A stretch of 51,606 bases of DNA, the filler included, from Dirinaria sp. TL-2023a (lineage: Eukaryota): assembly GCA_051941275.1 (NCBI GenBank). It is 3 parts of 3 records of this genome, joined end to end, with 100 filler letters (N's around TTAATTAATTAA, not from the genome) between each part and the next. Parts side by side here need not be neighbours in the genome. Positions count along the whole stretch, not along the records: positions 34,482 to 51,606 come from JAVEBF010000452.1; 2 more parts are not named here. The stretch is one strand, 5' to 3'. The translations under genes were made by a program, and so were the position numbers. How positions within the stretch are numbered: the first letter of the stretch is position 1; the number at the start of each line of letters is the position of its first letter. This document shows, in pieces, positions 2,165 to 50,564 of the stretch. Under the pieces are notes generated by a model. The model was not told where the DNA came from. It searched no databases and saw nothing but the letters and a program-made list of their open reading frames with translations.

Positions 2165-5100
2165 TCATCTCCTGTCATCGTACTCCCTCGGACGTTCATC
2201 AGGAGGCGGCCCGTAGCCTCCACCATGGCCGTACCCAGGAGGCGTGTATGTCCCTCTACCCGTCTCCTCTCGCCTCGCTCGGTCGTTGATGTCGCGCCGT
2301 GCCTGGTCCACGACCCGGCTGCTCCGGTATTGAAGCATGTCCGGCCGTGATTGTTCCTGCTGCTGGCGCTGACGTAGTGCTTCCTCTTCTCGCAGAGTAT
2401 CTTGTCGCAGGGCTTCTTGGCGGCGGCTATAGGCATCTTGATACAGGCTTAGGGTGGAGCCTTGTCCTGGTGCCTGCTGGTGTTGCTGCTGGCGAGGCGG
2501 AGGCTGAATGGTCGTTGGTTCTTCTTGGCGCAGAGCCTCAGGGTGACGTTTATATGTGTCAGGGAATAGGTTGCGCGGCGGGTCCTGGCGCTGTGCTTGC
2601 TGGTGCTGTTGCTGGTGCTGTTGATGCGATGTATGCTGGATTGTTTGCGACTGGTGCTGGTTATGGTGCATGGACTGAGAATGCTGATGTTGATGATGAG
2701 GGTGCATTTGTTGCTGGGGATGGATTTGAGTGTATGGCGAAGGGTGCAGCACCGGCGTCGCTTGGCTTTGAAGTTGATGAGGAGGTGGTGGTTGAGGGTG
2801 CGATTGCAAACCGACAAACGATGAGTTTCTGGAATGCCCAAACGAGGGTGGCGGAGTTGGCGCATGGCTACGTGGCATAGACTGCAAGGGAGTGCGAGAC
2901 GTTGCTGGAGGAGGATACGTAGTCTGCGATCGTGGGGATTCTGCGCGCTGCGGTTGCTGATAGGGTTGTTGCCGCTCGAGGTAGTTGCGCTGAGCTACGG
3001 TCGCCCAATTCGTGCTTGGTTCTCGACTTTGTTGTGCCTGGTGCTGTGCCTGGTGCTGTGCCTGATATGGTGCTTGGTGTTGAGGAGGTGGATGCTGAGA
3101 CAGGACCTGACCAAGTGAGGATCTTTGGTGGTGTTGCTGCACTTGGCTTGGTGCCTCGCCAGTTGACGGATCACGCCGCATATACTGCATGACAGGCTGA
3201 GTTGGCTGCTGCTGGTAGATAGGTCCAGCTGGTGATTGAGGCGGAGGTGTAGGCGCGGCCGCCGCGCTTGGACGACTATCACTCACGCGCTTGCGGGTCT
3301 GAGGTTCGGCAGGCTCGTCATTGAGGATTGACATAATGTTGGACCTCTTCGGAGGCTGTGGTGGAGGGGGCGCAGCTGGTACAGAGTTTGGTCGAACGCC
3401 ATCTTGAGGCGGCGAGAAGTTCAGGGGCGGTCTTGTATTCGCTGATGATGGTATGGGTGTCTGACGTGGCTGACCAAAACCATCGGTACGCCGCGCTGCA
3501 GTTTGATTCTCTAAACGCTGTTGCTCTTGCCGCTGATCGACTGAGGGATGCTGTTGTGATGTCAACTGCTGGTGTGTAGCCACTCTTGGTTGGATATTGA
3601 TATCGACTGAGTGTAAGGGCGCGATTCGTTTTTGCGAAGTTGTAGAAGGCTGTTGGCTTAAGGGCGTCGACTGGTGCGAGACCGAGGACTGAGAGGGTTG
3701 CACCGGTTGCTGGTATCTTGAGGATCCTTGATTGTTGTCTTGTCTTGCGCGGTCGTGTGCGTGTACTGGTGGCTCATCGAAGTTGGAGGGCCGGTTTGAA
3801 TCCAATAATGACCGGAGAGGATGACCTTCCGACTGCGGCTGTTGACGGATTTGCTGATGTGGCTGAGATGGTGCTGCAGGCTGAGGCTGGAGAGCAGGCC
3901 GAGTACGATCGTCGGAAAAGAATCCCGAACGAGGGCCTTGTAGAGGTTGAGAACCTCGCTGTTGCTGAGATTGGCTCGTCGGGCGTACAGGAGGTCCAGT
4001 ACTACTTAGCAAGGGACCCGGAGACGCTGCGTTGCTAGAAGCAGGCTCCCCTGGTATTAGGGTAGAAGTCGGTCTTTGCGAGCCCGAGAGTAGTTGAGGA
4101 GGCGAAACTTTGATTGGTTTGCTGGGCTGTAGTCCTGCTGAATCTTTGTCAATCTCAGTGGTCTCTACGCTCGGTGCCAAAGGCCTTGGAGGCGCTATTT
4201 GAGGACCAGTGTCGTAGCGGCGTTTTTGAACTATGGTCGGTGGCGGCGGCAAGCCCATATCTTCGCCTCGTTTAATTTTTTCATTTGCAGCTGAGGCAGC
4301 TTCTTCTAAGGCTCTGCTGTCGCCTCGTTCGATTTGGCGATGGTAATAATTCTTGACCTGGAACAACTCTTGTTAGCTGATAATATAATTTGAAGATGTG
4401 CAAACGTGGTAAGACATACCATTGTCTGCGTTTTGGTCTTCATATGGTCTGCAATAGCCTGCCAATTGGTGCCGAAGTGCTGTAGCAGGTTATTAAAATC
4501 GGTCTGCTCCGGGACTGACCAGTAGCTGGAGGTTGGAGGGGCGCCTCTGTGCTGCGGTTGTAGAGGCTCCTGAGCTGCATACGGCGGCTTTGCTGTTGCA
4601 CCTACGTTGCTCATCGCTACTGGCTGTGTCGCAAGCCATGCTTCGTTGTTCTGCTGGTGGTTGAATGATGGCATGCTCTGATTGTTGTGTAGATTAGCAA
4701 GCAACTCTGCCGTCCTGAATTCTTCTAATTGCTGTCCACTTTCGAGCTTTGGCTCTTTACTCTTTCCCCTGGTGCGCTCTTTGTCAACCTTTTGCGGCGA
4801 AGGCCCTGGCGCAGCAGCCAACAGCAGATTTTTGCCTTTTCTCGCGCCTTTCTCTTTTGCAGGGATCGCTCGTGTGCGCTTGGCTGTTGGTTTCTCCGCA
4901 ATTGGTTCGCCACCATCTCCTTTAGCACCGCTAATGTTGCGTTTATTAGGCGTAATTGATGGCGTTGATGTATCGGCTTCCCCGTCACCTCCAAAGGTCG
5001 GCGCAGCTGCCCGTCTTGGTCGCCCTGTATCCGTAACAGCAATCTGGATGATTTCGTCCACCATGGAGGTAGGCATAAGTGATGGCGCACCAGCACCGGC

Positions 5101-8100
5101 CTTCGAAGGCAAGCCTTTGCGGCCTGGTTTCGCTTTTCCCCTTTTCATCCTAACGTTATACTTCTCCTTATAGTGTGCCTCATGTTTTGTCAGATAGTAG
5201 TGTCGGATGCATTCTTGGTAGCTACGATTGGGAAGATCTTTGGCAATCAAGCCGAACTTTTTTGGGTTCGCAAGGAAGCTTTCCGTGAAGATGTCCTGCT
5301 CTTCAAATGAGAAATCATCTTCTTTAGGCACATAGCCAAGGGCTCTATATGCATCCTTAGAGTCGATGCGGTTGGTGGTATCAATCAGACGATGAGTTTG
5401 AACCTCGTGTTCCTCAAGCATGTCTGGAATGACAGCTTCTTTCTCTGGGTTTATCGAGGACTTAGCTTCTTGTTCTCGCCGTCGCTCTTCCTCAGCTTGG
5501 TACATGACCGATTCTCTGATTGCTCTTTCAAAGTCAAGTTCGCTAACGTTTCTGCCCGATCGTCTCCCTTCCATGACCGGTGCTGGCTGTACAAATGGGG
5601 TTGAAATTGGAGCAGGTGTGGAAGGAACGGATGGAACCTTGTTGTCCGCTTTTTTCTTCTCTTCCCATGCTTCTACGGAAAGCCTCCAAGCCTTGTAGTC
5701 TTCGTAGAATTTTGATTTTATTTCTTCGTGACCAGTCTCTTCGATTTTCAACCGAGCCCTTAATTCTGTGAGCAACTGGGCATCAATGATTTCTTGGAAG
5801 TCGGAATGCTCTTGTAGCTCGTCCATCTCTGAAAACGGCGTCGGTGGTCCAGAGGCTAGGTACGGGAGGCTATCCATCGGAGGTGTCTCAGCCTGAACAA
5901 TCGGCGAATGGGCTAGACCTGGAACCAACTGACACGATTCATCTTCGATAGCTTGGGGAGAAGGATATGCGTTTGGTGTACGCTCATCCGCCGGCTGTGG
6001 TTCGAATTTGAATGGTGAGACCCCATTGGCTCTGTCTTCGGCAGCACTCGCAAGAGCATCGATCTCGTCCATGAGTAGCAGCAGCTGCTTGTTGTGAGGT
6101 GGACTTGCAGGCCGCTTAGCCTCTAAGAGCCGAAGCTCTTGCCTGAATTTGCGCTCGTCAGCGTGATACTCTTCATCCAGGTCCATCTCCTCATCCTCGG
6201 AGATAGCGCTTTCTTTGCCTGCCTCTTCACTCTCTTTGGTGATTGAATTGAGATCTGGAGGCTCTCCCAAATCCTCGGTCTTAGGCGATACCCTTCTGCT
6301 AGCTGCTTGCGAGCTTTCCAATACATTTTGAGAAAGAGCTTGTTCGACGTTTATGTACTTTGGAGTCCTGTCTCCAAACACTAAGGCCTTTGTCGGGCTT
6401 TCCGGTGCTTTCAAGCTCTGCCCATCGTCGTTGTCACCGTCAGAAGCATCATTGGATTCTGGCCTGGCATAGAGATGTTTAGGCTGCCCGCTGCTCATCA
6501 TTGACGCCGATCCACGGGCCAGACCTGGTCGCACCCATGTCAAGTTTGGTTGTCGAGGAGGTCGCTGCGTTGCATTGCCCAGCACTGCGTGCGCAGGAGA
6601 CGTGGTTGTTGGCCATGGTGGTGCCCGACTACGGTCTGCCTTTGGGCCTGTCGGAATCTTGACTGGAGAAGACTGGCTTGGCGCATCCTGCAAGTATTGC
6701 TTATTTTGGTATACGGCATTAGCATTGGAAGATGTCGTAGATTGAGGATGCGCTCCGTCCCTTGCTTTGTCCGCTGACGTAACCGTTGGTGCTCGACCGT
6801 ATATAATTTGCGGAGACGTTTGACCCATTCTAGCATCCCTATTGGTATTGGAAGAGCGCTCGCTACTGGCCGATGCAGTAGATGGAGTTTCAGTAGCCAA
6901 TGTATGGGTATTGGATAATTTATTGATCTCATGGCTATCTTGGAATCGACCGTATGTACGGGTAGAGTCTGCGAGTAGATGCCGGGTCTGTTCTGCCTTT
7001 GGCCCGGTTGGAAGGCTTCCGAGTATCTGAGCTTTTGGCGCTGATGGGACATTGACCATCGAAAGGGGAGCATGTGATACCGGTGGCAATGCAGCCTTTC
7101 TGCCCCCAAAATCTGCTCCACTGGGTAGGTCTGTGGATTGCTTCGGATAGACGATCGACCCAAAGGCAGGCACTTGAGGCGCCTGAGGAGGGGAGCTTGC
7201 GCGCTGGGGGGGCAGTTCTCTAATCATTTCCTGAGAAGCTGAACCACGGCGTTCAGCAGCCTGTGACTGGATGCTTTGATTCGTGTTCCTCACGTCAAAG
7301 CCAGCCCGTTCGTAGGGACTCATGTCCATCTCCTGGCCACTGTACGTAGATCGTCCTGCAACGGAGTGGTAGCCAGGACGCGGTGATACAGACGTCGAGC
7401 CTACACTTGCAGAAGCATCCGGCCCTGATCGCTGAGCAGAGACCTCCTTTGCGCTCTTTTCATGTTCTCGGTCTTTGTCGTCCCATTCCTTTCTAGAGTA
7501 TTCATCTCTCCTACTTTGCCCTTGGGTCCAGTCGCGATCACGGTCATCTACCGCTCTGCGCTCCCAGGGTCGCTCACGGGACCGACTTCTAGGCCGAAAG
7601 TTTTCCCGATCCTCACTAAAACTGCCTCTGCTTTTTCTGCTGTATTCTCGTTCAGTTCTGCCACGGGCTGGAAAGCCTCCACGGCTGGCTGAGCTAGTTG
7701 CAAGGGGAGGATCCAAGACTGCAGGGGACGGCTGGGCGAATGCTTCTCTCGAATCCCTTCGGGATCGTTCTGTGTCACCATCCCTAGGCACAAATTCCCG
7801 AGTGTCCCTGTAGTCTCGAGGAGGGGGGGACCTAGACCGATTGCGCCCTATAGGTGAAGTCCGGCGCTCCCGACTCGGATCTCTTTCTCTCCATCCCCAT
7901 TCTCGGTGGTCACGCTCTCTCCGGGCCGCCGATATGTCCCTGGAATCGCGAAACTCCCTGCTCAGCCCATCTCCACGACCTCGAAACCCTCTCCCTCGGG
8001 TGCCATATGGCCCTCTTCCAGGCCCAGTGCTGAATGCTTTAGGACCACGCGGCGGCTCCCGTCCAGATCCTGAATGTGGATGAGGATCGCTTGAGCGGTA

Positions 8101-8241
8101 CGGAGGGTCATTGGTAGTGCGGGCAGACAAGGGCCCACTGCCATAGGGACCCGACGATCTTCTATCAGGAAAACGGGGTGGGGATCGATCTCGAGGAGGG
8201 TAACGAGAATCGCCTCGGCCAGACTGAAAGCGAGACGACAT
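2165..8241 (-). CDS. SNT1: Snt1/NCoR-like double SANT (Myb-like) protein of the Set3 HDAC complex, 2 exons (8241-4420, 4357-2165), ~2004 aa
   Basis: SANT1 is FSFEEQDIFTESFLANPKKFGLIAKDLPNRSYQECIRHYYLTK. SANT2 is SSYWSVPEQTDFNNLLQHFGTNWQAIADHMKTKTQTM|VKNYY, split by a GTATGT..GCTAAC..CAG intron. The N-terminus is RD/RS-rich and the C-terminus Q/P-rich. Confidence 0.88.
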
Positions 8242-9075
8242 CGATCATATTCACATCCCATAAACCGATGTTATTCGATGTTATTCGATCATGGATTGTA
8301 GGAATGAAATTCAAACAGTGAAGTGAACTTTGGTTCATTAAAGTAAGGAAGACTGCAGGACAGCAGACATAGAGTGTGTTGACCTGCAAAGCTGCGACAG
8401 TGACAAAGTGAAGACTGAACATGAGGCTGCACATACTTTAATCGCCTTGTTGCGTGTAGACGCTAGCGCCCGCCTAATTTGCCGAAGGCTCTGATTGGTT
8501 CCCGATGGACTACTCCGTACCGGGACCACCGGGATCACCTGACCGTACCTACTTACTTGAGCAAGGTACCTTGGGTAGGTTTCGGCAAGTCATAACAGGG
8601 GTCTTATTGCAGATCTTATTCAGGCCATGATATTAATGCCAAGGCCAAAATACCTTACCTTGTACTTTTTACTTCCATGTTCTTAACCTGGAAAACAGTA
8701 AGGTATTCCTTCGCACAGCATTTGAAATTGGTCAAAATATTGTAGCGATCACTGATAGGCTGAGCAACAGTGTATAACAATTTTGAGGCAAGTGTGGTTT
8801 CATTTGCCACCGGCGATCCTCACTGCTTATTTTTGTGGGCAGATGCAGGAGCTTTTGAAAATACTGAATTGCTCGTTCCACGACTAAGTCCGGATTCCGA
8901 ACTGACATCCTGTTTGAAATTGATATCTTTTCTACTGCGAGGGTATGTTTTCGATCGCCATTGCAGACTTAATTTTCATATTGACGGCATTTGAGTCTTT
9001 TCATGGTTCCACCATTCGCTGCTTCGATCCCGAAGTCCTTCCGAAGTCAACTGCGGTGATATCGCTAGGGCCATA

Positions 9076-10267
9076 ATGAGTGTAGACGGAGATGGCCATG
9101 GTGCACTGCCCTCTTCAGTATCGGATGCGGTTCTCAAGGCTTCTGCTCCCGTACCGGAAGGAGCAAAAGAAGTGCATGGCATCGAATTCAACGATTTTGA
9201 GACCAAAGACATCACTGTTGCTGAATTGGTCACTGCAATGGCCGGTATGGGTTTTCAGGCGAGTGCTGTATCTGAGGCAGTTCGGATCATAAATGATATG
9301 GTACGTGGCTCAGGACGATTATGTACATTTCACCGATCTGCGAACCTAATATTTGTTGGTACTCGAGAGATTTAGCGAAGACTTCGATTCACCTAACGGC
9401 ACAACCATTTTCCTGGGGTATACTTCCAATCTCGTTTCTTCCGGTTTAAGGGAAACGTTGCGATACCTTGTACAACACAAGCATGTGTCTGCTATTGTGA
9501 CCACTGCTGGAGGCGTAGAGGAAGACTTGATCAAATGCTTAGCCCCCACTTATCTAGGATCCTTCTCGGCAGTAGGCTCGGAACTACGAGAGAAAGGTAT
9601 GAATCGAATTGGCAATCTTGTAGTTCCAAACAGCAATTACTGCGCTTTCGAGGACTGGGTGGTGCCTATCCTTGACAAAATGCTGGAGGAGCAAGAGGCC
9701 TCGAGACATACAGCGGAACCGCTAGTCTGGACACCAAGTACAGTCATCCAGAGGTTAGGAAAAGAAATCAACAACGAAGCCTCCATCTACTACTGGGCCT
9801 ACAAAAATGACATCCCCGTCTTCTGCCCCGCGCTGACCGATGGCAGCTTGGGTGATATGCTGTACTTCCACACGTTTCGTTCGTCGCCTTTGTTTCTCGA
9901 CATTAGTATCACTCGGGACATCCGCAAGATCAATGATATTGCGATGAATGCAAAGCGGGCGGGAATGATCATCCTCGGTGGGGGCCTGGTCAAGCATCAC
10001 ATTGCGAACGCATGCCTCATGCGCAATGGAGCAGATAGTGCTGTATACATCAATACAGCACAAGAATTTGACGGCAGCGATGCTGGAGCAAGACCGGATG
10101 AGGCCGTCAGCTGGGGAAAAATCAAAGTTGGCGGTGACAGCGTAAAGGTAGGTAATCCAAGAACGCCACAACTCTACAACGAGTTGACAAAGCAGGTCTA
10201 TGCTGAAGCGACTGTCGTGTTCCCCCTCATCGTAGCCGCTACATTCGCAAAGACCAGAAAGCGGTGA
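9076..10267 (+). CDS. DYS1: Deoxyhypusine synthase, 3 exons (9076-9300, 9368-10147, 10196-10267), ~358 aa
   Basis: Motifs [41 protein letters not shown] and [21 protein letters not shown] (active-site Lys). The intron 1 acceptor is inferred from frame (see findings). Confidence 0.96.
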
Positions 10268-12511: not shown

Positions 12512-15500
12512 ATGGAGCTTGCGGTATCGATAAGCGGAACCGACTCACAACACCTCACTTCTCAAGATGGCCTCCATGTAGGCTCTCAAGACTTCTCCTC
12601 TTTACACCAGCTCAGGCAGGATCATTCCCCATCACCCGAAGCCCTGCAATACCGCAACTCCTTACCAAGATCAGGCACCACATCTGTCCACGGCACCATG
12701 TCGTCTTCGAACATGAACCCATCGCCCACTTCTGCCACACCCACCTCGCCCTTCCGACACCGAGCCGCTTCCGCTACCGGTGTTTTCGATAACAACAATG
12801 AGATAGATATAGATGCGCAGAATCATGATAGAATGGAGACAGACGAGGAGAGTAGTGAAGAATCCAGCTCAGAAGCAGACACCCCTCCGAACGATAACAC
12901 ATCTGTCAGAGTCGGTCCACCGGACATGATGCTGGTTGACCAAGAGGCCATGGATACCGCGCCTGATAACCTCCATGCTGGCGAAATCAGACTACCAGTG
13001 GGTCCTGGTAGGTTGTCCTTTTGTGATCGAATGTAGGCCTTGCATATGTGCTAAGCTCTCCACCCAGCAAACCAAGAGCAGTACCCAGATATACCTCACG
13101 ATCCACCAGCCTCACAACCAATCGATAATGCAAGAGGCACAGACGACGAGGCGCTTATTGACTTGATTCAACCACCGCCTCTTCTCTCAGAAAGTGATGC
13201 GTTATTAAGCGGCGCAGATAGCAATCCGCCTGCTCATCTTGCGGGTGCTGCAGCAGTAAATGGTAGCCAAGCTGATACAAGTATTGAAAGTCATCAGAGC
13301 AGCGCCAACACGAATGAGGGTGCGCAACCTGGTGAACAAGTTGCAATAGAGGGAAACGATCACACAAATCGTGCAGCTGACGAAAATCCCACACTCATTC
13401 CATCGCCACCTGAAGCAAATCATAACGAGAGCTCATCTGAGGAAGAGGAGCAGCCATACTGGGCCAAATTCGAGGAGGATAAATCAGCTCCCACAGAAGA
13501 GGAGTTGAAGATGATCGAGCAGCAGCCTCATGAAATAAGCGCACTGGATCGTAAGTATCGTGATAGTTCATATCTAGAATCAATTACAGCGCTTATCCCT
13601 CTTCAGATGAACATTGGGAAAAACTTGCGTTTGAACCACTTGACGATCCTGAATATCTGCCATCATCAACCGGGCGTATCTCGTGGACCCTGAAGGGATT
13701 CCACGGTACACCTGCCAATCCAAACAGAGAGACAGTGATGAGATCTCCGTCTGTACTGATTGGAGATTACTACTGGAGCATCAAAGTCTTTCCCCGAGGC
13801 AATGATGGCTCGCCACTCATGAGTGTCTATATTGAATGTTCGCCGTACCCAAACGATGATCAGACCACCGAGCCACCAAACGATAGACAACCAAATCAAG
13901 ACCCTAAGAAGGCTTTGCTTGGGTCGTTGCCCAAAGATTCATCGACGGATGACACATCCAGCAGCGATACGCCAAGGCCTTCCAACTCTGCCGCCGCGCC
14001 AGTGCGTGAGCAGGGAAAAGGAAAGCAAACTGCAGATACAGCTGCTGATGGGGTGCCTAAGCCTGAAGTGAAGTGGGAAGTACCAGCACAAATACTCTGC
14101 GTTGCCTACAATCCAGACGAGCCCCGCGTCAATTCATTTGAGAGGGGAGACCATAGATTTCATCACAAGACTTCGGATTGGGGTTGGAGAAGGTTCACTG
14201 GCCCATGGAAAGTGCTTCATTTACGGGCATCCAATCAACGACAAGCACTGCTTCGCAATGATACACTTTCATTCACCGCATATATTCGCACTGTCAAGGA
14301 CACAACAGGTGCATTATGGTGGCATGCGCCTACTGGTGAACCGCAGTGGGATCATTATGAGCGACTTGGTCTCAATCGGTTGCTCTCGAAAGATGTAGGC
14401 TCGAGCGCTGCTGTGAGCGCGCTTTCGACCTGGTTACACCTCTATCCCTTTTGTGGCTCTTTAAAGAGACTGCAAGAAGCTCAGGAGAAAGACCGCCGCG
14501 ATCGACCACTGTTTGACGATTTGGAATTCTACCGGAAGGAGTTGATAGCGACTTCTCAAGATGCAGAGCATGATATCGACTTCCACAACTCCGTAGAATA
14601 TATTGAGTGGTACGACGCTGTTCAATGCGAAGCAGATGTTATCGCATTCTGGGACATCCTAAGACGAGCTCTTAGCTCTGAAGCTTCTGGAGTAAAGCCT
14701 ATGTCGAAAGCTAAAGACTTCTTCAAGGATATTCTGATGCTAAAACAGCCAGACGCTGGCAAGCAGGCGCACGCTACTTCGGATCAAGTTGTACCCCCAC
14801 CGAAGGGCACTGAACCATGCAGCGTGCAAGAAGCTGTTGATCTTGCTATGACCTACGAAAAGGAGGAGGATAGAGTTTGGAAGACCTTCGATGGCCTGAA
14901 CCAGTCGCTGACTGAACCTCCATCGGTCCTCCAGATAGAGCTGCGTCGGCAAATGTACGATACCAAAGCGCGGAAATGGAAAAAGTCTACCCATCAAATT
15001 AAACTTGATGAGATTGTATCACTAGCTCCTCCAACACTGAGCTCTCGTTATGAATATTCACTACTCGGCATTGTGGTTCACTCTGGTAGCTTGGAATCGA
15101 AGGATTACTACTCAGTCCTGCGGCCCGAAGGACCTGGAACTCGCTGGATAAAATACGCCGGGGACAAAGCCGAGCGGGGCGTTGAATGTCTGACTACCAA
15201 ACAGGCTCTTGAGGCGCATGAAGGAGGTCCCGATGCCGAGAACACGTCGGCAGTGGCTTACATTGCCACTTATGTACGCACTGCTCTGTTTTCAAAATTC
15301 GGCAAAACCCCTAAATGCGAGCCCGCCGTCTCTGATATCGTATCAACCGGACCACAAAAGAAAGGAGACGCGACCATTCAGCCTATGGAGGAGGATGAAG
15401 ATGGAGTGCCCATACCACTTCATGTCTACCAGTCGGAGCTCTTCGAAGGTCACAATGACCTGGGAGTCTTTGATTGGAGCAAGCATAGCGATGCTGACTC

Positions 15501-17009
15501 CCGCATCCTCAAGCTCGAGATCAATGACAACGCTAGCATTTCTGCCATTGTAGATACTGTAGTCAACGCCCGAAGAGAAAAGTTTCCCGACAGGCAGGAG
15601 AAGTATGGAATGTGGTTTGTGAACACATTCATGAACAATCCAGCTATGGAGAACGTGCTTCGTGCACCGGATGTCTTACCTATGGACGCATTCACAGCCG
15701 ATGAGCTTCTGAGGTCGACGAACGTCTGCTACGATGTAGTTCGCATATGGCTGCATACTTTCCCTTCGGAAACGGAAGGGAAACACCATCCTAATACAGA
15801 GGCCACGGGAGAACCCACCCGTGCTCCAATATCAGACGTAGACGAGGTTATGCAGATCGAGGGTGAGGGAGGGACTGTTACCGCAAATGAACGCCCAGCT
15901 CATCCACGAGATCAAGTAGAGATGTCATCCATGGAACAAGCCGCTCCCGGATCGGTCATAGAGAATACAGCAACCCAAGCGGCAACAGCACGGGATGGAG
16001 ATACACCCATGGAAGGCAATGCGGAAGCCGAGGCAGAAGATGTGGCACCACCTTCACCACTGCCGCCAATAACTAAGTCCAAGTGGAACCCTAAGCTTGA
16101 CATGGACTTCTTGAAAAACGACGATAACATATACATATTTTTGAAGGTGTTTGAGCCCAAGGGGCAAATTTTCCGAGGTGTCAAAGCCTTCTTCGTCAAG
16201 CAAAATGCTCTGGTCGGTGAAGAACTCAAAAAGGCCCTGTCCCTCTCAAAAGACCAAGCCATCGATGTCTGGGAGGAGAAGATAACAGCGCACGTAACAC
16301 CTATTAGCACAGACAGCAGGTTTGCCGATGTGGCCCCACGCTCGGGCGTCATCCTAATTGCACAGCGGCGGCAATCGGAGTCAGAGTGAGTTCCTTGTCG
16401 CCATTTCTTGCCATTGGGCCTGAACTGATGAGCAAACACAGACTTTCCCAGCTCAAAGAAGCCGGCAAACCAGCCACCGTACCCGAGTATCGAGACTATC
16501 TGTTTTGCGCCACCGACCCGGCCTACCTGAAACCAACCCTGACAGCCTCCTACTTCAGCACGCCGTACTATTCCTGCTCCATCGCCTACGGCCGCCCGCA
16601 CGGTGCTGGGACATCCATCTCCCTCGCCGGCGACAGCTACACGGGCAACTTCAGCTCCGGACTCAAATCCGGCCAAGGCACGATGCGGTACTCGAACGGC
16701 GACATCTACACGGGCGCCTGGGCCGACAACGAGCCCGAAGGCCAGGGCGAAATGACCTACGCCAAGACGGGCAACGTGTACACGGGCGGCTTCAGGAAGC
16801 GGAAACGCCACGGCAAGGGCGTGATGAAGTTCGAGGTCGCGGACGAAGAACAGCGGCTGTGCCAGATCTGCTACGAGAACGAGATGGATGCCGTGTTCTA
16901 CGATTGCGGACATGTGACCGCTTGCGAAACCTGTGCGCGCCAGGTCGATGATTGTCCCGTGTGTAGGAGGAAGGTTAAGGCTGTTATTAGGATTTGGTTG
17001 AGTGCTTAA
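12512..17009 (+). CDS. MATH + USP-like (apparently inactive) + MORN repeats + C3HC4 RING protein, 4 exons (12512-13007, 13068-13550, 13607-16385, 16442-17009), ~1441 aa
   Basis: MATH motifs IGDYYWSIKVFPRGN and DWGWRRF. USP-fold motifs PSVLQIELRR and YSLLGIVVHSG. MORN repeats YTGNFSSGLKSGQG, YTGAWADNEPEGQG and YTGGFRKRKRHGKG. RING CQICYENEMDAVFYDCGHVTACETC..CPVC. All three introns are GT-AG and frame-consistent. Confidence 0.9.
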
Positions 17010-37538: not shown

Positions 37539-38316
37539 CTAAGCTGATAATCCACTGTTTCTGCGAAAGGAGACTTTCTCGACGGCGACATTCTCGACGC
37601 CGTTCTGGTCTGTTTTTAATTGATACACATAGAGGACTAATACATCACCCTGGACCTACCCAATCGCGTTAGCAAGATCTTTCCACTGTGGCAATGAAGT
37701 ACTTGCATCCATCAAGCAGAAGCTCGGCGTGGGCTCTTCTGTGTCAGGCCACCAGCCTGTGCTCAACGCGCCAGTCGCACTTCCTGGATTGACGAAGAAT
37801 TTACCCTCAAGTTCGTAAGCCTCAAATCTGTGTGTACCTCCCCATAGTAACACATCCACATCCATATGTCTTGCAGCGATCAGTAGACTATCTGGATCTC
37901 CTGGTGGGATGAGGGTGTGGCCGTGAGTAAACCCAATGCGTAGCGATCCATGAGTGACTACTTTGGACAGAGCCAGGTTTGGAGCTTCCACGTCAAACTC
38001 GCCCTTGACAATTTGCAAATCTGGCGCTATCTGGCGCAGGAAGTCGTAGGTTTCTTTGTCAGTAAGATTCCCCAAGCACAAGATTTGGCCAATTTTGCCC
38101 GGCGCTAACAATTTTTTGAGCTGCAGTAAGGCGGCTTAGCAGTCAGCGTTGGCGGCGTAGATATTGAGAACTATACCTTTGCTGGTATATCCTATACGTT
38201 ATGGTGAGCATGTAAAGAGCCTTCAGGTAATGATTGGCCGGCAAGATGAGAGACCATACCGGCGCGCGATCAGGAATGAAGAGGTCACCAACGACCAGCA
38301 CAAGTCTTGATGCCAT
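37539..38316 (-). CDS. VPS29: Retromer subunit Vps29, 4 exons (38316-38260, 38191-38177, 38120-37707, 37655-37539), 200 aa
   Basis: MASRLVLVVGDLFIPDRAP|DIPAK|LKKLLAPGKIGQILCLGNL..FFVNPGSATGA..PSFCLMD|VQGDVLVLYVYQL. Includes a 15-nt microexon and a GC-AG last intron. Confidence 0.97.
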
Positions 38317-39046
38317 CGCCACTTGCAATGTTACCGCTCATTGAGCTTTCTTGCTGGATTGTACTGTAGTAAAGGACCTTGAAGGGAGACCAATGCTTTA
38401 CGACGTAGCCTGTTAAGGTGGTGCACTTTGACAAAGGTTGCTCGGTTTTAATAATCAAAGCATAGCGCACTTTCGAGGAATAGCGTAGACCTCATGAATT
38501 GGACCGTGAAATGATTGGAACACAGGCATCATGATAGCTTCATGACTGTGTCTGGCTGGTGGTAACACTCCATAAACATCTGTGTCTGGTCAGTGGTAAT
38601 ACCATTATCCGCATCCTGCATCCAAGCCGACAAGGAACAAAGAAGGGCCGGCCAGCACTGACGAACGAAACCTAAACGGCAAATGTACGTATGAGCACAT
38701 GTAGGTTGGCAGGATTCATGAGCTATAACAGAATCTGCATTGAATGCTGGATACCTTGTCATTTGATTTTAGAAATTTTTGAAGCCTTCTCACCAAGAGC
38801 TCCCCGGATCTATTCGCTGACAGCATCCTGGCAACATTCTGGAGTAGACACTACCGTATCTTTAGCCGGCCTTGCCAACCCCTCACGGTCCTAAATCTGG
38901 CGAACTCGCGTGCAAGATTGAGCCTCATCTCGAGGCACCTCGAGCAAAGGCCAGTCCTCGAGATAAATACTCCTTTCTCCGCCGAGAGGTTATCAGGCTA
39001 CCAAGACGATCTAGAATACACGCCACCCATCAGAGAACCACCGAAG

Positions 39047-40329
39047 ATGGACAGCGAGAAAGATAGGAGTCTATCCAAACAGCCCGACCACCCCGCGCTC
39101 TTGATTCCGGGACCCGTGGAATTCGATGATGCAGTACTCGAGGCCATGGGCCATTACAGGTGCGGTATAAGACGGCACAGATTCAGCATTCATTGACTCG
39201 TGACTCAGCCAGAGCCATGTGGGCGCACCTTTTGTTGCGACTTTTGCGGAAGTTCTCACGATGCTGCGCAAGCTGATGCAGACCTCTAACCCTGCGTCAC
39301 AGCCGTTCGTGATCTCCGGCAGCGGCACACTCGGCTGGGACATGGTAGCCGCAAATCTGGCGGAACGTGGTGATGAGGTGCTCGTCCTTCACACGGGCTA
39401 CTTCGCGGATTCCTTTGCAGACTGCTTCAAGACATATGGTGTCTTGGCAACCCAACTCAAGGCCCCAATTGGCGAACGGCCTCAATTACCAGAGATCGAG
39501 ACGGCGTTGAAGGAAAAGGACTATAAGATTATCACGGTCACACATGTAGATACCTCTACAGGAGTTCTGAGCGAGATTGAGACCCTCGCGGAGCTCGTTC
39601 ATCGAATCAGTCCTGATACTTTGATCGTCGTAGATGGAGTATGCAGTGTCGGGTGTGAAGATCTGCAATTTGACAAATGGGGCATCGACGTGGTGTTGAC
39701 GGCGAGTCAAAAAGCAATTGGGTGCCCTGCTGGTCTATGCATCTCAATGTATTCAGGGCGCGCAATAGAAAGCCTCAACAGTCGCAAATCGCCACCAGCA
39801 TCGTACTTTGCTTCTCTTAAAAATTGGCTACCGAGTAGGCTTTCAATGGTCTTTACAGTGGGAAATGGAGAGCTGACGCCAAGCAGTAATGCAGAACTAC
39901 GAAGCCAAAAAGCCATCATACTTCGCAACGCCTTCACCCCAACTCATTCACGCGCTTCATACGGCATTGTCTCAAATACTCTCAAGCCCCTTGTCGGAGC
40001 GGTTTGCCGCTCATCGTGATACCTCGCACCGTATCAAATCGGCCGTCACGTCTATGGGCCTCAAGCAACTGGCGACCAAGCCCGAGAACCAAGCCAACGG
40101 AATGACGGCTATGTACCTCCCAAACGATTTAAAGGCTTCCGAAGTGCTGCCGAATATCCTTAAGAGAGGCGTCATATTCGCTGGCGGATTGCACAAAGAC
40201 ATTGCAACTAAGTATATAAGATTCGGCCATATGGGCGTGAGCATCCTCGACCCCAACAGACAGGACATCGATAAGGCTCTTGAAGCGCTGAGATTAGGGC
40301 TAGCGGAGGTTGGTTATAAATCCGCATAG
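39047..40329 (+). CDS. AGX1: Alanine-glyoxylate aminotransferase (class V PLP enzyme), 3 exons (39047-39159, 39209-39834, 39887-40329), 393 aa from first ATG
   Basis: LLIPGP, ISGSGTLGWD, THVDTSTGV, VVDGVCS, LTASQKAIG (PLP Lys), YFATP and YIRFGHMG. Confidence 0.95.
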
Positions 40330-42745: not shown

Positions 42746-43781
42746 ATGTCCAAACGTTCCGTTTTCACAACTGTAACTCGTGAGTCCGCCCCACCTATCG
42801 TCTCAATGCGAGCTGGTCTAAGGCATTGCCAGCTCTTGAACCCGGCATAACCCGCGAGACGGTACTGCAGACGCTCCATGATCATGTGGCAATGATCGAC
42901 CTAAATCGTGAGGCAATTGCAGCGTACTTGCGTGAAGAAAGCTGATGGTCCCAGCCTTGGTCATCGATCGTCACCCCGTGAAACCTCCAGCAACGGCGTC
43001 GCCTGAAGAGTACCACTGCCAGTGGTACCAGTTGACTGATAGGGTCCAATACCTCCCCAGCGGCCTTGCTCAGGGCAAGGTCACATATAATGTCTGCTTC
43101 CACGACCTGGTGATGGGTCTGCAAACCCATTGCTTCGCCCCGGCAGGGCTTGACATCAAAGGAAAATGGACCGTCGGCGGTTCCCTGCCTGGGGAACCCA
43201 AAGAACCGTCCGAATTGGGATTAGGGTTGCCAAAGCATGGGCTCTGGCTAAGAGAAGACGTGGATATGAGATGCAATGTCCTAATGACCAGTTTCGTTAA
43301 AAAGACGTTGAAGAAAGCCCACAGCACTCTAGTGGCACGCTTGGTTCAGAAAGCTCATCTCATGGAAGCTGAATCACTGAATGATAGCCTCTCGCAGCTT
43401 GGGGACCGTCGCAATTCCTACGCAACGTATAACACACCCGGCGCCCCGCCAGCCCAGCAAACCCAACCCTACTCGGACGTCTCCAGCTTAAGGAGCTCCG
43501 ATCTATCTCAAAGCCCCCAATGCCAGCAGGACGGTTTCACGCCAATGACAAGTCCTTTCCAAAGCGTAGATCCAGCATACCGGGATGCCCAAGATTCTTA
43601 TCTGGCGCATCGGAAAATTTTCACCAATCACCTGGCTGGCTCGCACAAACCCTCTCAAACAATGCTTCATCCATCTAATGCGATCAAGTTACCTCAAGAC
43701 GAAATGCTAGTCGAACTTCCGACTGCAGCTTCACCACAACATCATGAACTACCTGCTCGCTTATTCGATAATTATGAATAG
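42746..43781 (+). CDS. Conserved fungal hypothetical protein (resembles DUF7053 family), 3 exons (42746-42779, 42833-42907, 42955-43781), 311 aa
   Basis: MSKRSVFTTVT|PLEPGITRETVLQTLHDHVAMIDLN|PLV..GLQTHCFAPAGL..LWLREDVDMRCN..FVKKTLKKAH. Two GTGAG..CAG introns in consistent phase. The family name is from memory. Confidence 0.8.
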
Positions 43782-48816: not shown

Positions 48817-50564
48817 ATGAAATACGCAAGCATCGGCGCAATCGGTGCGACTCTCGCGCTCCACCTCCCTTTCACTTTCGCGAAACACGGCCACGCACAC
48901 CTCAATGCGCTCGAGCATAGACATCATCATAGCAGAGGACTTCGCGGATCAGCAGCAGAGACTGGGTCGGCCATTGAGCTTACGGACGCAAACATCGGGA
49001 AAAGAGGTGGACAATGCCAGTTCCCAACAGATGCTGGATTAGTTGCCGTCACCCCCAATGATCAGAATGGAGGTTGGGCTATGAGCCCGGATCAATGCTG
49101 CGAACCGGGGAAGTATTGCCCCTACGCTTGCCCTCCGGGCCAAGTAATGGCGCAATGGGACCCGGACGCAACAGCCTACACCTATCCGATGTCCATGGTA
49201 TGCTCATTGCTTCCCTCGGTTCTGGCGCGGCACTAACGGTCACAGAACGGCGGCCTGTATTGCGATCGTGGTGGAAACATTCAGAAGCCGTTTCCCAACA
49301 AGCCATACTGTGTCGACGGCACAGGCAACATTGGGTGCACGAACAAAGCTAGTGGCAGTGTAGCGTTTTGTCAGACTGTTCTGCCAGGCAATGAAGCAAT
49401 GTTAATCCCCACGAATATTGAGACTTGGGCGCAGCTCGCTGTCCCCGGTCCGAGTTATTGGGCTGGCACCGCTGCGCAGTGAGTCTCACGAATGCCATCT
49501 TCCTTGCGTCAATTGTAATCCTGACATCACATAGTTTTTACATCAATCCGCCAGGCGTTTCGACCGAGGAAGCCTGTGTATGGGGCTCTTCGTCCAACCC
49601 CTATGGCAATTGGAGTCCGTATGTTGCAGGCGCAAACACGGTCGAATCAGGAGAAACTTTCATCAAGCTGGCCTGGAACCCAATCTATCTGGAACCCGCG
49701 ACTCCCTTCCGCAACGAGATGCCGACCTGGGGTGTCGAAATAATCTGCGATGGCGAATGCAATGGTCTTCCGTGTGCCATCGACCCAAGCAAGCATCAAG
49801 TAAATGAAATGGACGGCAGCAATACCGACGGAGCAGGAGGCGCAAATTTCTGCGTTGTGACTGTAGCGAAAGGGTCCTCCGCTAACTTCGTTGTCTTCGA
49901 AGGGGCCATGAGTTCAGCCGACACTGGAGCTGGAGGAGCTCCCCAAGCCGCAGCATCTCCAAGCACCCCCGGGTATAGCTATGTGGCATCACCCGCCTCT
50001 CCATCGAGTAGCACGCCAATCACGTCTCAACTAAGCTCTGGGCCCCCGTCTACTCCCCCACCCAGCAGCTCCTCGTCGGCAAGTCCGACGCCTACACCAA
50101 CACCAACCCCGACACCAACCCTGACCCCATCGTCAATTTCAGTACCGCCGCCCCCGCCGAGCAGCACATACTCTCCTCCTTCAGCAAGTTTATCCATTTC
50201 CTCATCATCATCATCATCATCATCATCCTTGTCATCCTCAACGCCTCAAGCTGTGAGCAGCAGCAACTTCCCTCTTAATATTACGAGCCAAGCACCCACT
50301 ACACCTCCTCATGCCCATCCGCATAAGCACGTCAAGCCAACGCACCTGAGTTTCCACTACAAGCCGCACGTTTTCGTCGAGAATGCTACGTCGCCCGTAG
50401 CTTCCGCCAGCGCCCCAATCGCGTCGGTCAACGCCACGGGGACTCCCACACAATCACTGATTGTGCAGACCGTCAAGCCTACTGGAGCCGGCTATAATAC
50501 GCACGTGACTGTGGCAGGCTTCGGCCTGACGGTTCTGGCAGCCATAGCATTCGTGGCTTTGTGA
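48817..50564 (+). CDS. SUN-family (GH132, group II / Adg3-like) cell-wall beta-glucanase-like protein, 3 exons (48817-49197, 49246-49478, 49535-50564), 547 aa
   Basis: Signal peptide and KR site. Motifs GWAMSPDQCCEPGKYCPYACPPG, NGGLYC, FCQTVLPGNEAMLIPT, YINPPG and GNWSPYVAGAN. Ser/Pro/Thr-rich stalk and GPI-like hydrophobic tail. Confidence 0.93.

Follow-up and report, generated by a model that had tools for sequence, protein, structure and literature searches.

Where does translation of the AGX1 mRNA of a lichen fungus begin, and could the choice of start codon decide which compartment the enzyme reaches? Glyoxylate is formed inside peroxisomes by the glyoxylate cycle, and the site at which it is transaminated therefore matters for fungal carbon and redox metabolism. 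We address this question in a joined stretch of DNA from the lichen-forming fungus Dirinaria sp. TL-2023a, referred to here as the window, which is the full 51,606 nt, filler included, along which all positions are counted. The coding region of AGX1 lies at 39047..40329 of the + strand, with exons at 39047-39159, 39209-39834 and 39887-40329 and introns of the form GTGCGG..CAG and GTAGGC..CAG, and once spliced it encodes exactly P0019, a hypothetical protein of 393 aa from the same fungus. The product matches PF00266 (class V aminotransferase; E = 4.4e-20, 72.4 bits versus a cut-off of 21.5), and its database matches are labelled alanine--glyoxylate transaminase by their sources. A first-pass annotation had drawn attention to an open frame without ATG ahead of this gene, encoding a peroxisomal targeting signal type 2 (PTS2), and had proposed that a near-cognate codon starts an organellar isoform. 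Our analysis favors an amended form of that proposal: with a probability of about 0.7, the 264 nt before ATG 39047 are coding, a minority of translation events start at one or more in-frame CTGs and would add the PTS2 to the enzyme, and most start at ATG 39047.

An open and ATG-free frame upstream of AGX1

The frame of AGX1 stays open for 88 codons upstream of the annotated start (38783-39046), from an in-frame TGA at 38780..38782 (+ strand), its upstream limit, to the first ATG at 39047, and it contains no in-frame ATG, exactly at the coordinates given by the first-pass annotation. This TGA also closes a 12-codon open reading frame (ORF) that begins at ATG 38744, which is the nearest ATG upstream of a 302-nt leader (38745..39046, + strand) with zero ATG in all three frames. 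Stops are equally unevenly distributed, with none in the extension frame versus four and three in the other two. When the intergenic region 38338-39046 was shuffled 20,000 times at the mononucleotide level, runs of 88 or more open codons occurred with P = 0.009 and the absence of ATG over 302 nt with P = 0.007, the joint probability of both being 5e-5; along the + strand of the window, about 1.5% of 300-nt segments lack an ATG. Additionally, codon-usage log-odds trained on the long ORFs of the window gave +6.5 bits to the extension frame over 38828-39046, versus -12.4 and -2.0 bits for the other frames, and values of -22 to -30 in every frame of the 264 nt farther upstream. The G+C content at third codon positions is 0.60 for the extension, versus 0.55-0.59 for the exons and 0.44 for the upstream region. 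The full translation of the extension includes ...LATFWSRHYRIFSRPCQPLTVLNLANSRA-RLSLISRHL-EQRP..., in which the nonapeptide is the candidate PTS2.

Comparison with a close relative, P0043, an ORF call that is 90% identical to the window, shows where constraint on this frame begins. Its tblastn alignment consists of three segments, 38718-38768 (frame 3), 38773-38814 (frame 1) and 38804-39193 (frame 2), the last of which extends over 130 aa at 87% identity with zero gaps. Since the upstream matches lie in two other frames, two frameshifting indels must have occurred within the ~100 nt upstream of ~38815, versus none in the 390 nt downstream of 38804. We place the boundary of frame constraint at 38804..38816 (+ strand), with other frames upstream of ~38815 and the extension frame ungapped downstream, and this indel pattern implies that constraint starts a few codons before ATC 38825 and CTG 38828. 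Counted by eye on the alignment, P0043 differs from the window at 5 of ~84 amino acids in the extension, 4 of 37 in exon 1 and 5 of 12 in the intron read-through; that is, the extension is conserved like exon 1 and far above the intron. These comparisons indicate that the extension is conserved coding sequence of AGX1 and not an untranslated leader. The extension might also stem from ATG 38744, which is in frame, by read-through of TGA 38780; we reject this origin, since the window and P0043 do not share the frame at that point.

A conserved PTS2 followed by a conserved box

The nonapeptide RLSLISRHL (38915..38941, + strand) fits the PTS2 consensus in its broad form and in a stricter one, R[LVIQ]xx[LVIH][LSGA]x[HQ][LA]. 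It is the single match to the strict pattern in the six-frame translation of the window (103,208 residues), which upholds the motif call of the first-pass annotation, and it would occupy residues 7-15 of a protein started at CTG 38897 or residues 30-38 of one started at CTG 38828. The AGX1 protein ends in YKSA and, as had also been stated, this is not a type 1 signal for peroxisomal targeting (PTS1). The broad consensus is (R/K)-(L/V/I)-x5-(H/Q)-(L/A), as quoted in PMC7214817; this paper and the others cited below by PMC number are represented here by excerpts. Directly after the PTS2 lies a conserved box, EQRPVLEINTPFSAER (38942..38989, + strand), which has no Pfam match, and indeed a Pfam search with the whole extension matched no family. 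This box may form part of a receptor-binding surface or of the N-terminal arm of the enzyme.

Conservation of both elements was assessed in 260 database proteins, comprising all 33 matches to a query of extension plus exon 1, the best 120 of 468 and the best 120 of 606 from profile searches, in lists that overlap. The NTPFS-type box (..RPxLEINTPFSTER) is present in 258 of these 260 relatives, the exceptions being the short annotated forms P0019 and P0034 (the latter from Physcia stellaris). A PTS2 consensus lies at most 30 aa upstream of the box in 242 of the 258 box-bearing relatives (180 strict, 62 broad only), and there Arg1 and His8 are present in 242/242, Leu2 in 237/242, and the ninth residue is Leu or Phe. 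Variation occurs at positions 3, 4 and 7, giving 56 distinct 9-mers among the 242 relatives, and 131 carry a nonapeptide identical to RLSLISRHL. Fixed consensus positions combined with variable x positions are the pattern expected under selection on a PTS2. The 16 box-bearing relatives without a PTS2 call include six ORF calls that start within or after the motif, several apparently mis-spliced models, two variants with Val or Ile at the end, and P0030, a miss of the locator that does carry RLSLISRHL.

The extension is borne by relatives from several classes of Pezizomycotina, including lichen fungi (Umbilicaria, Gyalolechia, Polycauliona, Bachmanniomyces) and members of Penicillium, Aspergillus, Talaromyces, Histoplasma, Paracoccidioides, Cladophialophora, Alternaria, Bipolaris, Hortaea, Elsinoe, Rhynchosporium, Chaetomium, Madurella and Geoglossum. 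The leader alignment across Pezizomycotina that the first-pass annotation had called for thus shows a conserved PTS2 and, at the columns of the candidate starts, Met, Leu or Val. When the 73-aa extension alone was compared with 1.84 billion representative proteins, 55 matches were found at E <= 0.001; among those that were recognised, namely AGX1 leaders plus two borderline multi-stretch matches, and leaving out eight newly numbered ones, there was no sign of the extension as a module in another protein family. A scan of a genome-contig collection for the DNA of relatives returned one bacterial locus only, which matches exon 1 alone. Some relatives are annotated with much longer N-termini: P0029, P0030, P0032 and P0033 (Cladophialophora, Fonsecaea and others) have 85-113 residues in front of the PTS2, with a high content of Ser, Arg and Pro, which hints at a further upstream start in that group.

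Two CTG codons as candidate start sites

Two CTGs of the extension frame stand in similar contexts. The one proposed in the first-pass annotation (38828..38830, + strand) follows an ATC within agcatcCTGgca and does have A at -3 and G at +4; a start there would give a 73-codon extension before ATG 39047. The other (38897..38899, + strand) lies in ctaaatCTGgcg, again with A at -3 and G at +4, and would give an extension of 50 codons. An overlapping ORF in a different frame (38691..38894, + strand; 67 codons, containing ATG 38691 and ATG 38718) has its stop TAA at 38892-38894, ending 2 nt before CTG 38897.

Relatives carry Leu, Val or Met, followed by Ala, at the column of CTG 38828 (site 1). Among 42 lichen-fungus-like sequences, the window included, this column holds Leu in 16 and Val in 7, and an initial Met is found at -22 to -24 in 6; the codon before site 1 begins with A in 47 of the 69 occurrences taken across classes. 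The segment between both CTGs, ATFWSRHYRIFSRPCQPLTVLN (38831..38896, + strand), is basic and free of acidic residues and is a possible mitochondrial presequence: the stretch 38828-38914 encodes four Arg, three Ser, two Thr and zero Asp or Glu. In relatives the leader that follows site 1 is often presequence-like as well, as in LAAPRRLL.., LAARLLARRFYPA and LAAPRRLLGALNSRLYP.

For the column of CTG 38897 (site 2), relatives were anchored on the PTS2 and start columns were read from the protein sequences. Of 221 relatives, 73 have their first Met at -5 to -14 relative to the PTS2, 5 at -15 to -21 and 31 at -22 to -33, with wide scatter among the rest, and the CTG 38897 of the window corresponds to a Leu at -6. 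Where sequences read at least 20 aa farther upstream, 129 of 158 have the dipeptide [LV]A at -14 to -3 and 17 more have Met. The dipeptide is found at site 2 in 84 of 101 sequences versus 13 of 101 in a control segment, and three pairs of relatives (P0121/P0113, P0087/P0082 and P0126/P0145) have near-identical contexts that differ in Met versus Leu or Val alone. The residue before [LV]A at site 2 is Lys, Thr, Ile or Asn, all with A-first codons, in 90 of 120 distinct local sequences, the preceding codon being G-first in 22 and pyrimidine-first in 3, versus 77 A-first, 133 G-first and 254 pyrimidine-first among 501 [LV]A dipeptides of the mature domain. Lys, Thr, Ile and Asn are chemically dissimilar, and their sole common trait is A as the first codon base. 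An A-first codon in front, together with the Ala (GCN) that supplies G at +4, is best read as the context of a start codon made visible through the protein.

Furthermore, an RNA hairpin (CTCGAG-GCAC-CTCGAG; 38916..38956, + strand) with a predicted stability of -19.4 kcal/mol begins at +20 from CTG 38897. The 70-nt segment 38900-38969 is predicted to fold at -23.8 kcal/mol (z = -2.51), and 2 of 200 shuffles were equally stable; no hairpin was found after CTG 38828 (z = +0.68) or after ATG 39047 (z = +0.12). CUG initiation is favored by stable structure at +17 to +32 (PMC11165317), and a role of the predicted hairpin in a start at CTG 38897 would be a lead only. The palindrome CTCGAG occurs three times here (38929-34, 38939-44 and 38957-62), the first two copies forming the stem over the PTS2 codons. 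Since CTG 38897 is aligned with the initiator Met of many relatives, shares the context of CTG 38828 and has a predicted stable hairpin at +20, it appears to be a second start candidate at least as good as CTG 38828, and arguably better.

The annotated ATG and existing gene models

The annotated ATG (39047..39049, + strand; context ccgaagATGgac) starts the 393-aa form without PTS2, in agreement with P0019. A Met is found 5-20 residues before the motif LLIPGP in all 237 sequences examined, and an in-frame Met between the PTS2 and this main-start region occurs in only 7 of the 237 sequences that reach LLIPGP. The constant Met on one side and the scarcity of Met on the other are as expected if ribosomes must scan through the extension. 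The usual column of this Met is a Leu (CTA 39074) in the window; here, in P0043 and in P. stellaris P0034, the main-start Met lies nine codons upstream of the column that is usual in relatives. Some relatives, for example P0154 and P0110, have a Met at all three start sites.

Many database entries already contain the extension, beginning at an ATG, and the signal is thus present in annotations, though not discussed as far as we searched. Since the extension starts at an ordinary ATG in most other fungi, the non-AUG feature would be lineage-specific. In addition, eight NCBI models (P0006, P0009, P0016, P0157, P0162, P0166, P0172 and P0240), seven of which come from contigs of 77 kb or longer, begin without a Met; apparently their annotators also failed to find an ATG.

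A model for AGX1 translation and the points against it

We propose that most scanning ribosomes would pass the ATG-free leader and start at ATG 39047, whose context is strong, to produce a cytosolic 393-aa enzyme, and that a minority would start earlier, at CTG 38828 and/or CTG 38897. Near-cognate start codons are read as Met by the initiator tRNA. In the form started at CTG 38897, the PTS2 so close to the N-terminus could be recognized by Pex7 and direct import into peroxisomes, and the hairpin of the PTS2 codons may pause the scanning ribosome on this CTG. The form started at CTG 38828 would bear a basic, acid-free leader of 23 residues ahead of the PTS2 and could be sent to peroxisomes or mitochondria. 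In this lichen fungus and in many relatives, Leu or Val codons would hold both start positions with the extension intact, in place of the ATG that most other Pezizomycotina have there. We infer in this way the transcription of the leader, the use of the CTGs, the apportioning of isoforms and their import. The first-pass idea of an ATG-less leader translated as a PTS2 extension, probably from a near-cognate start, is supported as far as sequence comparison reaches; its choice of CTG 38828 keeps the backing of context, column and frame boundary, and is amended by the presence of CTG 38897 as a second candidate.

A fuller scheme, which we put forward as tentative and would not expect to hold in all its parts, is that of three nested starts on one mRNA, with CUG 38828 possibly serving mitochondria, CUG 38897 the peroxisome and AUG 39047 the cytosol. 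This layout would be ancient in Pezizomycotina, and lineages would tune the ratio of products by using AUG versus CUG or GUG while keeping the purine at -3 and the G at +4, with the hairpin of the PTS2 codons holding the ribosome on the second CUG.

Several observations weigh against the use of CTG starts. The exchange of Met for Leu or Val is the commonest ordinary exchange for Met, and the codons behind the Leu and Val residues are not seen in the protein sequences from which the start columns were read. Many of the relatives are prokaryote-style ORF calls, in which the first 'M' may be a GTG or TTG and which enter the database only with some start upstream; moreover, the relatives are kin, and counts across them are not counts of independent events. 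The site-1 motif as defined is missing in 13 of the 42 lichen-fungus-like sequences, and the helical moment (maximum over 11-mers) of the leader before the PTS2 is not above that of shuffles, 264 of 2000 of which reach it in what is a crude test. The codons that make up the hairpin specify conserved residues, and its presence could be incidental. The transcription start could lie downstream of one or both CTGs; if it lies upstream of 38691, five upstream ATGs become relevant, the 67-codon ORF included. Lastly, in P0043 the equivalent of ATG 38718 is in frame with the extension, and an AUG would therefore be usable in that species.

Alternative explanations

The PTS2 isoform could instead arise from an ordinary AUG in a short upstream exon spliced onto the extension, which would make a non-AUG start unneeded. 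The first-pass annotation had seen no upstream ATG exon in compatible phase; formally, a motif scan yields 31 phase-compatible combinations of ATG, donor and acceptor upstream, none of them convincing. In the best one, ATG 38683 is joined through the donor GTATGA 38689 to an acceptor at 38797, and since the introns of AGX1 itself have weak signals (GTGCGG, GTAGGC), weakness of motifs alone is no ground for dismissal; the unrelated N-termini of some annotated relatives, such as P0008 and P0013, may likewise stem from predicted upstream exons. However, not one of the 31 combinations pairs a good donor with a usable branch point, acceptors at 38784-38799 fall in the part whose frame differs between the window and P0043, and the border of conservation in relatives reads D-V-I-L-A, which is unable to encode an AG acceptor there. 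Such an exon also left no mark on the eight NCBI models without a start codon, and annotated relatives show no conservation with one another in their upstream parts. We consider a spliced AUG exon unlikely. We give even a little less credence to the extension being a relic, in which an ancestral upstream ATG was lost, the leader became a 5' untranslated region and the 393-aa form alone is made. The annotations of P0019 and P0034 do begin at the downstream ATG, ATGs occupy both start columns in many other fungi, and the translation of the extension is something that we infer. Against decay, the frame, an exact PTS2 and the box are intact in the window and in all 23 lichen-fungus-like sequences (window included) with Leu or Val at site 1, and the extension is as conserved as exon 1 relative to P0043, far more than the intron, with no indel versus two in the upstream 100 nt. 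Nor would a relic be expected to lack ATG in all three frames of its leader and to keep a purine at -3 at both start columns.

A different question is where the longer product goes, given a start at CTG 38828. This form might be mainly mitochondrial by virtue of its basic leader, with the PTS2 relevant only to the form started at CTG 38897, or not at all here; we regard this as possible but on balance doubtful. The segment between the CTGs contains four Arg and no acidic residue, relatives that start at site 1 look presequence-like (MLAPNLRTL.., MFATRRLF.. and LAAPRRLLGALNSRLYP, with an RRFYPA-type motif), and some relatives have three in-frame Mets, one per site (P0154 and P0110). The split of mammalian AGT between mitochondria and peroxisomes also differs by species (cited in PMC3798809). 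The resemblance to a mitochondrial presequence noted in the first-pass annotation holds for composition, which is basic and acid-free, and does not extend to amphipathicity, as the helical hydrophobic moment in the window does not stand out from shuffles; in addition, conservation of the PTS2 is much stronger than that of the leader ahead of it. Our preferred reading, a minority of CTG starts that would add a PTS2, leaves room for a mitochondrial share of the longest form.

Neighboring genes

AGX1 is flanked by a divergent gene on the - strand (37656-38337) with a calcineurin-like phosphoesterase domain (Metallophos_2, E = 5e-14), which looks like VPS29. Its apparent start near 38313 leaves a promoter region of ~730 nt shared with AGX1. 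The remaining long ORFs of the window, at 9350-10267, 13567-16389, 42936-43781 and 49422-50564 (+ strand) and at 4306-8244 (- strand), are ordinary fungal genes, and encode a deoxyhypusine synthase, a USP7-like ubiquitin hydrolase, a DUF7053 protein, a SUN-family protein and a Myb-domain protein.

Implications and comparison with known systems

A conserved N-terminal PTS2 across Pezizomycotina would constitute a different, testable route for the targeting of AGT. It also suggests that many annotated AGX1 start codons are placed too far downstream or are missing. As some species have Met and others Leu or Val at the start columns, the family would offer a natural system for the study of start-codon strength and organelle partitioning. 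A full-text literature search returned no description of a PTS2 on fungal AGX1 or AGT; subscription papers on fungal peroxisome proteomes, which lay outside its scope, may mention it.

To our knowledge, AGT1 of Magnaporthe oryzae is the only fungal AGT whose location has been studied, and it was assigned to peroxisomes by way of a weak C-terminal tripeptide. This protein, an orthologue of AGX1 from Pezizomycotina, was shown to reside in peroxisomes, and appressoria need it to function (Bhadauria et al. 2012, PMC3338719). In the excerpts of that paper, targeting is ascribed to the C-terminal QKA of a 385-aa form, an N-terminal PTS2 is not mentioned, and full-length GFP fusions under a 0.52-kb upstream fragment gave no signal (PMC3338719).

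In mammals, AGT belongs to the same family as AGX1, PF00266, and the N-terminus that is made likewise decides the distribution among organelles. Mammalian AGT targeting uses alternative starts, all of them AUG. The two differ in the peroxisomal signal, which is C-terminal, of PTS1 type and dependent on Pex5 in mammalian AGT and an N-terminal PTS2 in AGX1, whose C-terminus is YKSA. The mammalian enzyme is known for its variable mitochondrial and peroxisomal targeting (Danpure 1997, cited in PMC3798809).

A cryptic PTS2 at the N-terminus, revealed in a minor peroxisomal isoform of a cytosolic enzyme, has parallels in another pathway. The 6-phosphogluconate dehydrogenase of Candida albicans reportedly gains its PTS2 by alternative splicing, in work attributed to Strijbis et al. 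in 2012 (cited in PMC7214817); splicing is the means there, whereas no convincing spliced exon was found for AGX1. In Ustilago maydis, a non-AUG start gives a PTS2 isoform of the same enzyme, Pgd1 (Kremp et al. 2020, PMC7214817). According to the excerpts of this paper, Pgd1 resembles AGX1 in having a PTS2 in the annotated 5' leader, no in-frame AUG upstream and a motif conserved in related fungi; its near-cognate start is at a tandem AGG AUU, and the peroxisomal form is minor (~2%) beside the cytosolic AUG form. AGX1 is unlike Pgd1 in being another enzyme from another fungal phylum, with two separate candidate CTGs 69 nt apart in place of a tandem pair, a much longer extension (50 or 73 codons), and a PTS2 preceded by a basic leader and followed by a conserved box. 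Furthermore, the sites are ordinary ATGs in many relatives of AGX1, and the AGX1 case is known from sequence alone. If our reading is true, AGX1 would be the second fungal enzyme after Pgd1 with a non-AUG PTS2 isoform.

Within Pezizomycotina, the N-terminal extension of Neurospora crassa cpc-1 is started at near-cognate codons (Ivanov et al. 2017, PMC5487733), and the context of near-cognate starts in this group depends chiefly on A at -3 and G at +4 (PMC5487733). As far as the excerpts go, cpc-1 shares with AGX1 a conserved AUG-less extension, conserved near-cognate codons and purifying selection in the main frame, and differs in that it encodes a transcription factor whose extension has no organelle signal and interacts with control by upstream ORFs. 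Beside these systems, AGX1 is distinguished by an unusually clear comparative signature and possibly by a layout of three starts.

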